A stretch of 40,079 nt of DNA from a virus (Duplodnaviria; Heunggongvirae; Uroviricota; Caudoviricetes). The number at the start of each line of letters is the position of its first letter. The stretch's first letter is position 1. Below are positions 29,501 to 32,500 of the stretch, piece by piece. Made by a program: the position numbers. The stretch lies in IMG/VR virus record IMGVR_UViG_2721755728_000013; one strand, written 5' to 3'.

Positions 29501-32500
29501 GTGCACTCAGTGACAGTGTCGGGCGACTTGAGCCATCGTGTGCATCAGCAGGAGCATCAATGGCATAGCGCGGTGCCAGATTCGGTAAGCCAACAGCCTC
29601 CTGGAGTTTCTGACAGGCACCAAGCACTGAAGAGTTAGACAGGTTTAACTCCCGGCGCATAAAGTCCAGCAGGATCACGCCAGCCTGCATCTTGTCAGCA
29701 GCCTGTCCGGATAATTTTTCCGGTGCGCTGGTTACCATATCGAAAGTACGGATCACCTTCAGATGGAATGACGGGCTGATCCACATTGCATAGGCATACA
29801 CCAGTTCCTTGCAGACATACGTTCCCCGTTCATTTCCCCCATGAATCACACTCACCGGGTCAACACCCAAATTCTGGGTGTTGGTCAATTCATGAACAAG
29901 CTCAACAGTTTGTTGGCTGGAAAGAAACTTTCCCGGCTCCTTGGTTCTGGCATTTGCACCAGATGCTACTGCTGCGCGATGCAGATCGTTCAGGCTGTAA
30001 CGCCCATAAGCATCACGACGAACTTCAATACCATCAATGACCATCAGATTATTCATACTTCGTTTCTCCTCTTGATCAGGCGGCTGCACCCGCCGTTTTC
30101 TCGTACTTACTGATAGTGATCTCGACCTTCCCTTTCGGGATAACCGGTCCCCACTCCACCAGCATTCTTTTCACCTGACTGTCGTCTTCCCACACACCCG
30201 CATGGGTCAGGGCGTCAAACAGCGCCTTGTTATAGTTGTCCAGATCGCGGATCCGGTTATCCGGAGGAAACAACACGATCTCCACTGAAGCAGGTGCCGA
30301 CGTTGGTTTCGGCAGACGACGTAACTGCTCAACTATTGCTGCGCACGCCGCGCTCTGGAATTTGCGCCCCGCTGCGCTTATCAGACTCTTACCAGCAAAC
30401 GCCCCTTTGTTGGGGTGTCGCCAGTACGTGTTCACGCTGGGCGGAAAAGGCAGGATCAGCTTCATACTTTCAGGCCCCTCTCATGTAACCAGTGGGCTGC
30501 ACGCAGCCTGGCGTTTTCCTCACCGGCAAGCAGTGCGCGGATAATCCCGACCGCCTCGCTGTCGTCGTCCTTCACCGCGGTATGAAGAGTTATCCCCCGG
30601 GCCACGCCACGCTTTATCGTGATGACGCCTTTTTTCTCCAGTGCGCGAAGATGCTCCACCGCTGCATTCACCGAACGGTATCCCAGCATGGTTGCCACCT
30701 CCTGATTGGTTGGCGGAAAGCCACGTTCTTGCTGGTAAGAAATCAGCATATCCAGCACCTGCTGCTGGCATTGAGTTAACGTCGTCATGCCGCCATCTCC
30801 CTGACCAGTTTTTCCGCCTGCTGGCGAACCTGCGCCAGAAAGGCCTCACCACATGCCTCAAGTTCATCGCGCCCGATGTAGCTGATTGCCGGTCCCTTCC
30901 AGGTCTTGTCGAAAACAGCAATAGCACCAGCGAAGAAAGCGCCTGTCGGCACCTGCTTCTCATCCTTCGGGATAAACCAGGCAGGCAGTTCAAAACCAAT
31001 ACGCCCGCGAATAAAAGCAATATGGTCCGCATCTTCCGGCCACCACACTTCGCTGGTGGCAGCTTTGATCAGGAAAACATAGCGCCCGCCCTTATCACGC
31101 ATGGCACTGGCATGTTTCATGATGTAACGCATGCCGGTGATGTATTGCCCCTCATGCTGACTGGCGCGGCTGTATGGGGGATTACCAAAGGCAGCACCTT
31201 TAAGCTCCGCAAGACGTTCTGACCAGTCATGCGCCAGCGCGTTATCTTCCGCCGTGTAATACGCGGCACATTTGGCGTTATCACCGTCAGTAAACAGATC
31301 CAGAACAAACGGGCCAAACAGGGTGTTAATTCCCCAGAAAATGTTGTCCGGCGTGCGCCACTGATCGCCCACTTCCTTCAGTTCATGGGCTGGTTTGTTC
31401 CGCAGTTCCACCAGCGCCTGGCAATATTTATTACTCATTAAGCCCCCACGTAATTCCCTGACAGATACCACTCTTCACCCGATGCAGCGCGCTTGCTGCT
31501 TTTCCGTAAGCACCGCTCACGACGCGCCAGAAAATTGTTTCGTTCTGGCTGGGAGTGGCTTTCACGGAATGCCGCCATCCACACCGTTGCAGCACGACGG
31601 TATAAGCCCCTGGACTCCAGTTCTTCAGCCTGGCGGGTCAGGCACAAAATCACCCGTGGATCGTTAGTGCCGACATAGAAATTGCGCACAGGTCTGGTTT
31701 CTCGAACTGGTTGTGGTTCCGGTTCCTGCGCTCTCTCAGTCAGGCGCGGGAAATGTCTGCGTGTATCTCCTTCACAACGGTGAGCCACACGCCCACTCTG
31801 ACGTAACTTGCTTGCTGACTGCAGAACGCGCTGCCGTGAGTAACCTGCAAAAGCATCCGCAATGTCTCCGGAAGTACATCCCGGATGGGCTTCAATGAAT
31901 TTCTGAACTTCATTCAAAAGACTCATGATCACCCCCTGAATCCTGCCGGGATCTGGCTGTAGTCCACGTTGTCGTAACTGGATTTGAAGTACGGGTCTTC
32001 GCGTTTTTCGGTGTACGTGCTGACGGACGGTGATAAGCGCAGGGAAAGCTCATCCCATTTTTCCCGCAACTTCGACGGGCTGAGCACGTTACGGCACCAG
32101 AACGGATCGCGGCTGACGCGGCTGTACATCTCGCAGATTTGTTTGTGAGTACGACCATCCTGCACACACATCAGGCGAATTTCGTTTGCCCAGGCTGTCC
32201 AGTTCGGTTCTTTGGGACGAACCACCTCGCCGTCACATTCGGCGGCTTGCTCGTACAGGGCGATGATTTTTTTCCAGAGCCACTGTGCGCAGGTCAAATC
32301 ATCCTGCGTTCCCCACTGGCGCTTTTTAGGGCTGAATACAACCGCATCAGGATGGCGAGTTAAAAAATCCTGTTCATCCGTCTGCGTGTCCGGTTGCGAA
32401 GCGTCCGGACGAGAAGGTTTTTTATCTGACGGATCATGTTTTGATTTTACTGACGGATCCCCGCCAGATTCTGACGGGTGAAAACCCGCTTTTTTGCCAG

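Follow-up and report, generated by a model that had tools for sequence, protein, structure and literature searches.

The prophage gene yfdN encodes a PerC-family protein with a predicted winged helix and is coupled to an O-like initiator and a Dam methyltransferase

The yfdN locus and its replication neighbours

The stretch of DNA analysed here, referred to as the window, is the 40,079-nucleotide IMG/VR virus record IMGVR_UViG_2721755728_000013 (Caudoviricetes). On the minus strand it carries a replication initiator gene, a gene of the yfdN family and a methyltransferase gene, directly one after the other. The features of this locus are as follows.

30462-30788, minus strand: gene for a 108-aa protein with a LexA DNA-binding domain only (PF01726, E 2.6e-19) and no S24 peptidase domain
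30785-31438, minus strand: Dam, a phage N6-adenine methyltransferase (PF05869); gene downstream of yfdN, with its ATG overlapping the yfdN stop codon
31438-31926, minus strand: yfdN-family coding sequence, 162 aa from the ATG, with the stop codon TAA at 31438-31440
31438-31932, minus strand: longer form of yfdN, 164 aa from a GTG start; the NCBI annotation puts the start at this GTG (31932)
31932-31937, minus strand: Shine-Dalgarno-like AGGGGG, read from the sequence, 5 nt 5' of the yfdN ATG and within the 3' end of the initiator gene
31929-32870, minus strand: O-like replication initiator, the gene upstream of yfdN; HTH_36 domain at the N-terminus, homology to lambda O in the C-terminal half

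The open reading frame at 31438-31926, which had been flagged from the sequence alone, does exist on the minus strand; it encodes 162 aa and contains the peptide quoted at that time, GLYRRAATVWMAAFRESHSQPERNNFLARRERCL, as residues 107-140 of its product. The gene is real and evolves under purifying selection, with a dN/dS of 0.08-0.24 in the comparisons with unsaturated dS. The translational coupling proposed between the initiator and the methyltransferase was also borne out. Read on the minus strand, the upstream junction is ...TTC AGG GGG TGA TC ATG AGT..., where the initiator stop codon (TGA, 31931-31929) is followed 2 nt later by the yfdN ATG (31926-31924); at the downstream junction, the yfdN stop codon (TAA, 31440-31438) overlaps the Dam ATG (31438-31436) as TAATG. 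Between the two candidate start codons of yfdN, the ATG appears better supported than the GTG, because the diverged homologues have N-termini of the type MSL... and some of their loci have no in-frame start codon further upstream. The spacing of the Shine-Dalgarno-like sequence likewise favours the ATG.

A promoter and terminator scan of positions 30700-33300 revealed neither a consensus promoter nor a minus-strand terminator, which fits co-transcription of yfdN with its neighbours. Because the gene is placed in the early-right operon, with translational coupling to the O-like initiator and to Dam, its product should be made early after induction. In the record of phage SfV, -35 and -10 signals for dam are annotated inside orf40 (L104, 4024-4050; approximately 31500-31530 in the window); a consensus scan of the corresponding part of the window detected no sigma-70-like site.

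The C-terminal half of the initiator is 31% identical to lambda O (E 7e-26), and in lambda it is this half of O that binds the P protein. No lambda P homologue is found in the window, and no helicase or helicase loader is annotated in the prophage identical to it (see below); a Klebsiella phage whose initiator is 72% identical likewise has none. The last approximately 25 codons of the initiator gene (31932-32006, minus strand) encode a tail, REDPYFKSSYDNVDYSQIPAGFRG, that is shared with initiators which otherwise differ, SfV orf39 for example. Its terminal motif, IPxGFRG, is also present in initiators from Lelliottia, Kosakonia and Tatumella, and is absent from those of the Erwinia and Serratia types. 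The tail could be a docking peptide or just a mosaic joint. The O-like gene contains, at 32498-32561, 4.3 tandem copies of an iteron-like 15-bp unit, CAGATTTTGACGGGT; by analogy with lambda, these repeats probably mark the prophage origin.

The PerC domain and the predicted architecture of YfdN

The Pfam PerC profile (PF06069) matches residues 98-149 of the yfdN product (31480-31635) with a score of 36.1 bits (E 7.7e-9), the gathering cut-off of the profile being 22.6 bits. The sequence-only reading had described the C-terminal segment as PerC/Pch-like and had proposed a search with the PerC profile, in which the lack of a significant hit was to count against it. Since the match is above the curated Pfam threshold, the PerC/Pch-like domain is to be regarded as genuine. 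In addition, PHROG 1324 ('transcriptional activator') matches the product over its full length (E 1.7e-78), and a BLASTP alignment with EPEC PerC from plasmid pMAR2 shows 37% identity over 46 aa (residues 98-143, E 1e-6). The core residues common to the two proteins are L103, G107, R111, A112, A113, W116, R129, R136 and C139; in an alignment of this protein, PerC and PerC-only proteins, A100, L103, R111, A112, A113 and C139 are invariant. The PerC profile also matches each of 32 diverse family members (32/32) at E <= 0.01. The identification of the gene as yfdN, and of its product as a PerC-family protein, is near certain; the comparison with Pch is based on EPEC PerC and on Pfam. A sequence search of the PDB with the yfdN product gave no match.

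Membership of YfdN in a known anti-phage defence system was rejected, as the only PADLOC match, to GajB, is spurious (E 0.0094, 12.8 bits). The six PerC-like stretches of a 462-aa protein, P0201, turned out to be low-complexity noise.

The structure of YfdN was modelled with AlphaFold2 from an input containing 40 diverse homologues (mean pLDDT 75.8). Together with the alignments, the model divides the protein into the following parts.

31747-31926, minus strand: N-terminal domain, a predicted winged helix, residues 1-60 (helices 3-13, 19-25 and 31-44; strands 47-52 and 55-60)
31660-31746, minus strand: Pro/Glu-rich linker, predicted to be disordered, residues 61-89 (pLDDT <50 at 64-79)
31477-31659, minus strand: PerC domain, TPR-like, residues 90-150 (helices 90-106, 109-122 and 126-148; pLDDT ~90)
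31441-31476, minus strand: C-terminal tail SGEEWYLSGNYVGA, conserved in the alignments and of low model confidence

The N-terminal part shows, in the medium-confidence AlphaFold2 model and its fold matches, the H1-H2-H3-beta hairpin fold of MarR/ArsR-like winged helices. Its matches to winged-helix profiles are weak (phrog_1687, E 8e-5; BilQ, 17 bits against a cut-off of 125 bits). One relative (P0184) is above the Pfam MarR_2 threshold (32.5 vs 27 bits), and several other members of the family show weak wHTH matches. Both domains are basic, with a pI of 9.8 for the N-terminal domain and 11.3 for the PerC domain, and the predicted recognition helix has conserved basic residues at positions 36 and 40, the wing one at position 49. 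What had been called an N-terminal extension is, on the evidence of the model, a separate conserved domain that probably binds DNA. In the alignment, the linker varies in both length and sequence, with a family median of 12 residues compared with 27 in this protein. The tail SGEEWYLSGNYVGA is restricted to the two-domain family, and EPEC PerC is devoid of it.

An exhaustive search of 1.84 billion representative proteins yielded about 100 relatives, approximately 25 of which have both domains at full length (140-165 aa) and show 25-48% identity; PerC-only proteins of 60-92 aa are also among them. The two-domain architecture is retained down to about 25% identity across Enterobacterales. The earlier description as a PerC domain fused to an N-terminal extension holds for the presence of a distinct N-terminal part but not for the idea of an unusual fusion, as the protein is a representative of the widely annotated yfdN family. 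The new details provided here are the predicted winged-helix/linker/PerC architecture, its conservation and the gene order described below. Four database entries (P0024, P0136, P0034 and P0021) are fusions of parts of YfdN to the initiator N-terminus, RusA or Dam, and in one fusion entry, of 92 aa, the first 28 aa of the initiator are joined to the PerC domain; these entries probably derive from deletions or frameshifts in decaying prophages.

Distribution and gene order among relatives

The 489-bp yfdN sequence was found in 2546 of 5426 complete E. coli genomes (~47%), counting those in which at least 80% of the query was covered, and usually at 95-99% identity. In E. coli genomes its annotation reads 'yfdN: PerC family transcriptional regulator'. 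Copies of the protein in SfV (orf40), SfII, SfIV, mEp460 and Stx2c-converting phages show 95-100% identity, and the 'transcriptional activator' of ST64B shows 68%; two-domain homologues are present in prophages of Salmonella, Erwinia, Lelliottia, Tatumella, Kosakonia and Franconibacter. The flagged open reading frame is, by sequence, the already annotated prophage gene yfdN and is not new. In O103:H2 STEC genomes, the argU/intD site is occupied by a lambdoid prophage to which positions 20000-40079 of the window are 100% identical; the gene order in that prophage is cI, cro, ymfL (cII-like), DUF4222, HTH initiator, PerC-family gene, Dam, LexA-like gene, RusA, KilA-N, DUF968 and Q. As found, a routinely annotated prophage gene matters little. 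Nevertheless, few uncharacterised prophage regulators of E. coli are as widespread as yfdN, and its module is shared with the Pch virulence activators.

The virulence connection implied by the sequence-only reading proved weak. The PerC-family domain, and the identity of the window with prophages of O103:H2 STEC, a lineage that carries LEE, would suit a Pch-like activator of ler/LEE1 in this LEE-positive host. However, the same gene occurs in K-12, which is not known to carry LEE, in about half of E. coli and in genera that lack LEE; it is part of a conserved phage early operon and not of a moron locus; and its 37% identity to PerC covers only 46 residues. In one paper, yfdN was termed 'the K12 unique PerC homologue' and was deleted from the ler::lacZ reporter strain (PMC5931665). 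We interpret this deletion as a precaution, and count it in favour of an effect on ler. In a ler reporter, PchD had no effect and the effect of PchE was less than 2-fold (PMC5931665), so membership of the PerC family does not predict ler activation. Considering the presence of yfdN in K-12, in about half of E. coli and in other genera, its limited similarity to PerC, and the absent or small effects of PchD and PchE, a dedicated role in LEE control is unlikely to be the conserved function of YfdN; we regard activation of ler in the O103:H2 host as improbable, and the virulence implication as speculative. In the literature searched there is no functional study of YfdN, and mentions of it are incidental: besides the reporter-strain deletion, it appears in expression tables, in a network prediction and as an ASKA clone whose over-expression gives a glycogen-deficient phenotype.

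A scan of genome contigs gave 13 loci, and 80 loci were kept from a scan of viral contigs; the latter, being all 99-100% identical, are informative on mosaicism and not on diversity. In most of the fetched loci with enough flanking sequence, YfdN follows the initiator, usually with DUF4222 ahead, and Dam comes next in most of them. YfdN still follows the initiator where its identity has fallen to 25-35%, in Erwinia, Lelliottia, Tatumella, Franconibacter and metagenomic prophages, and in these diverged loci the stop and start codons of the two genes typically overlap. Many related prophages have retained the gene for the LexA domain alone downstream of Dam. In prophages of Serratia and Symbiopectobacterium, the slot between initiator and Dam holds a 74-aa PerC-only protein.

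This order raises the question of whether YfdN is a replication accessory protein occupying the slot of lambda P and linking the O-like initiator to the host helicase. The gene lies directly after, and is coupled to, an initiator homologous to the P-binding half of lambda O, the two remain in this order even at 25-30% identity, and neither a P homologue in the window nor an annotated helicase or loader in the identical prophage takes the place of P. The likeness of YfdN to lambda P is, however, positional only, as there is neither sequence nor profile similarity between them (hhalign probability 0.2%). Moreover, in Klebsiella phage Kp4878-1 (a record marked UNVERIFIED) a 72%-identical initiator is directly followed by a D12 Dam, and both YfdN and P are missing; near-identical YfdN proteins stand behind at least three different initiator types; some homologues lie away from replication genes, before Q or after recT; and the YfdN slot can be filled by the PerC-only protein described above. 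A P-type helicase loader was thus rejected as a candidate, and on these comparisons a role of this kind appears disfavoured, with only a slim chance of being correct.

A second possibility is that YfdN is a regulator or partner of the adjacent orphan methylase, setting the timing or level of its expression as the controller protein of a restriction-modification system does, or else targeting or modulating it. A methyltransferase gene is next to YfdN, or one or two genes away, in nearly all of the contexts examined, although the families differ. PF05869 Dam is the neighbour in this window, Erwinia, Lelliottia, Serratia and Franconibacter. An MT-A70 methylase is one gene away in one locus (L108), and is assigned in another (L016) from a DPPW-type N-terminal sequence only. 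A large C5-type methylase is two genes away, after Dam, in L109 and L010, and adjacent in L018 (N-terminal sequence only); L017 has a D12-type methylase motif, again assigned from N-terminal sequence only. In one E. coli type (L004-6), type I M and S genes are located upstream with one small gene between, and yfdN is away from the initiator, just before Q. The overlap of the yfdN stop codon with the Dam start codon would also agree with such a partnership. On the other hand, in a Shigella locus (L012) and in at least six near-identical IMG/VR loci there is no methylase, and YfdN is directly followed by the LexA-like gene; the Kosakonia homologue lies between recT and an acyltransferase; and in Kp4878-1 the methylase slot is present without YfdN. 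The adjacency may reflect a functional link or, since the slot exists without YfdN in that phage, simply the conserved lambdoid gene order, and we consider a methylase-directed role rather improbable.

Proposed role and comparison with known systems

The reading that we prefer, with a probability of roughly 0.45, is that YfdN is a phage-encoded transcription modulator, or counter-silencer, of the early operon. It is proposed because a predicted winged helix is flexibly joined to a PerC module in a protein that should be expressed early. According to this proposal, YfdN would be expressed early from the rightward operon; its winged helix would dock on DNA and so provide targeting; and the PerC module would alter H-NS-type silencing complexes or contact a host regulator, as in Pch/PerC and, more distantly, ANR. 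The outcome would be relief of the silencing of phage genes and possibly of host genes. If it is true that YfdN counters H-NS silencing on induction, prophage induction would be linked to changes in host expression well beyond LEE-positive strains. Pch activates LEE1 only when it is silenced by H-NS/StpA/Hha/YdgT, and lowers H-NS binding at LEE1 (PMC4764244); the ANR protein Aar is reported to bind AggR and H-NS through protein-protein contacts (PMC10148876). The basic character of both YfdN domains, and the conserved basic residues on the predicted recognition helix and wing, are counted as evidence for a counter-silencing role. It should be noted that the predicted winged-helix assignment used here comes from a medium-confidence model and sub-threshold sequence matches, and that the tight initiator-YfdN-methylase synteny would be equally compatible with a role linked to replication or to the methylase. 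The 37% identity to PerC over only 46 residues and the slight effect of some PerC-family proteins on ler also count against the proposal.

A broader evolutionary proposal, which we consider unlikely, is that yfdN-type proteins with winged helix and PerC domain are the ancestral, phage-housekeeping form of the PerC/Pch/ANR module, and would counteract H-NS-type silencing of the induced prophage or couple the replication/methylase module to transcription. PerC and Pch would then be derivatives without the winged helix, and the PerC-only proteins of Serratia and Symbiopectobacterium intermediates.

Among known systems, the ANR family (Aar, Rnr) is the more distant. ANR proteins are small helical modules that contact regulators and H-NS. 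The NCBIfam ANR model (NF033650) matches residues 96-142 of YfdN, that is its PerC region, only weakly (E 3.3e-5), and the score of 23.6 bits falls short of the 32-bit cut-off. Besides being smaller than 10 kDa, ANR proteins accompany genes of the AraC (AraC/XylS) family, whereas no AraC-family gene is annotated in the 20-kb prophage stretch identical to the window. Membership of YfdN in the ANR family was rejected on both counts.

EPEC PerC (perABC of pMAR2) and EHEC PchA/B/C belong to the same Pfam family as YfdN and are likewise borne on mobile elements. YfdN and PerC have in common the core motif A..LE..G(L/F).RRAA..W...R...(R/K)R..C. In contrast, EPEC PerC is a single domain of 89 aa and each group 1 pch gene has a length of 315 bp (~104 aa), so that YfdN, with 162 aa, a predicted winged helix and a linker, is outside the narrow PerC/Pch size class (~89-104 aa, single domain). 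PerC and Pch have neither the winged helix nor the WYL.GNYVG tail; YfdN has the tail and, by prediction, the winged helix. The genetic settings also differ: the PerC gene is in a virulence plasmid operon and the pch genes are in prophages or prophage-like elements, while yfdN is in an early replication operon, where, to our knowledge, no pch gene is located. For PerC/Pch, activation of LEE1 has been demonstrated; YfdN is likened to them by its sequence.

The closest known systems are the orthologues themselves. The YfdN of K-12, from the cryptic prophage CPS-53/KpLE1, and the phage orthologues have the same length, the same two-domain architecture and the same position between initiator and Dam, and the genes of SfV (orf40), SfII, SfIV, mEp460, the Stx2c phages and ST64B differ in nothing material from the gene described here. 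The CPS-53-like loci L011 and L014 have truncated initiator and Dam genes on either side of yfdN, whereas in this window both are intact.
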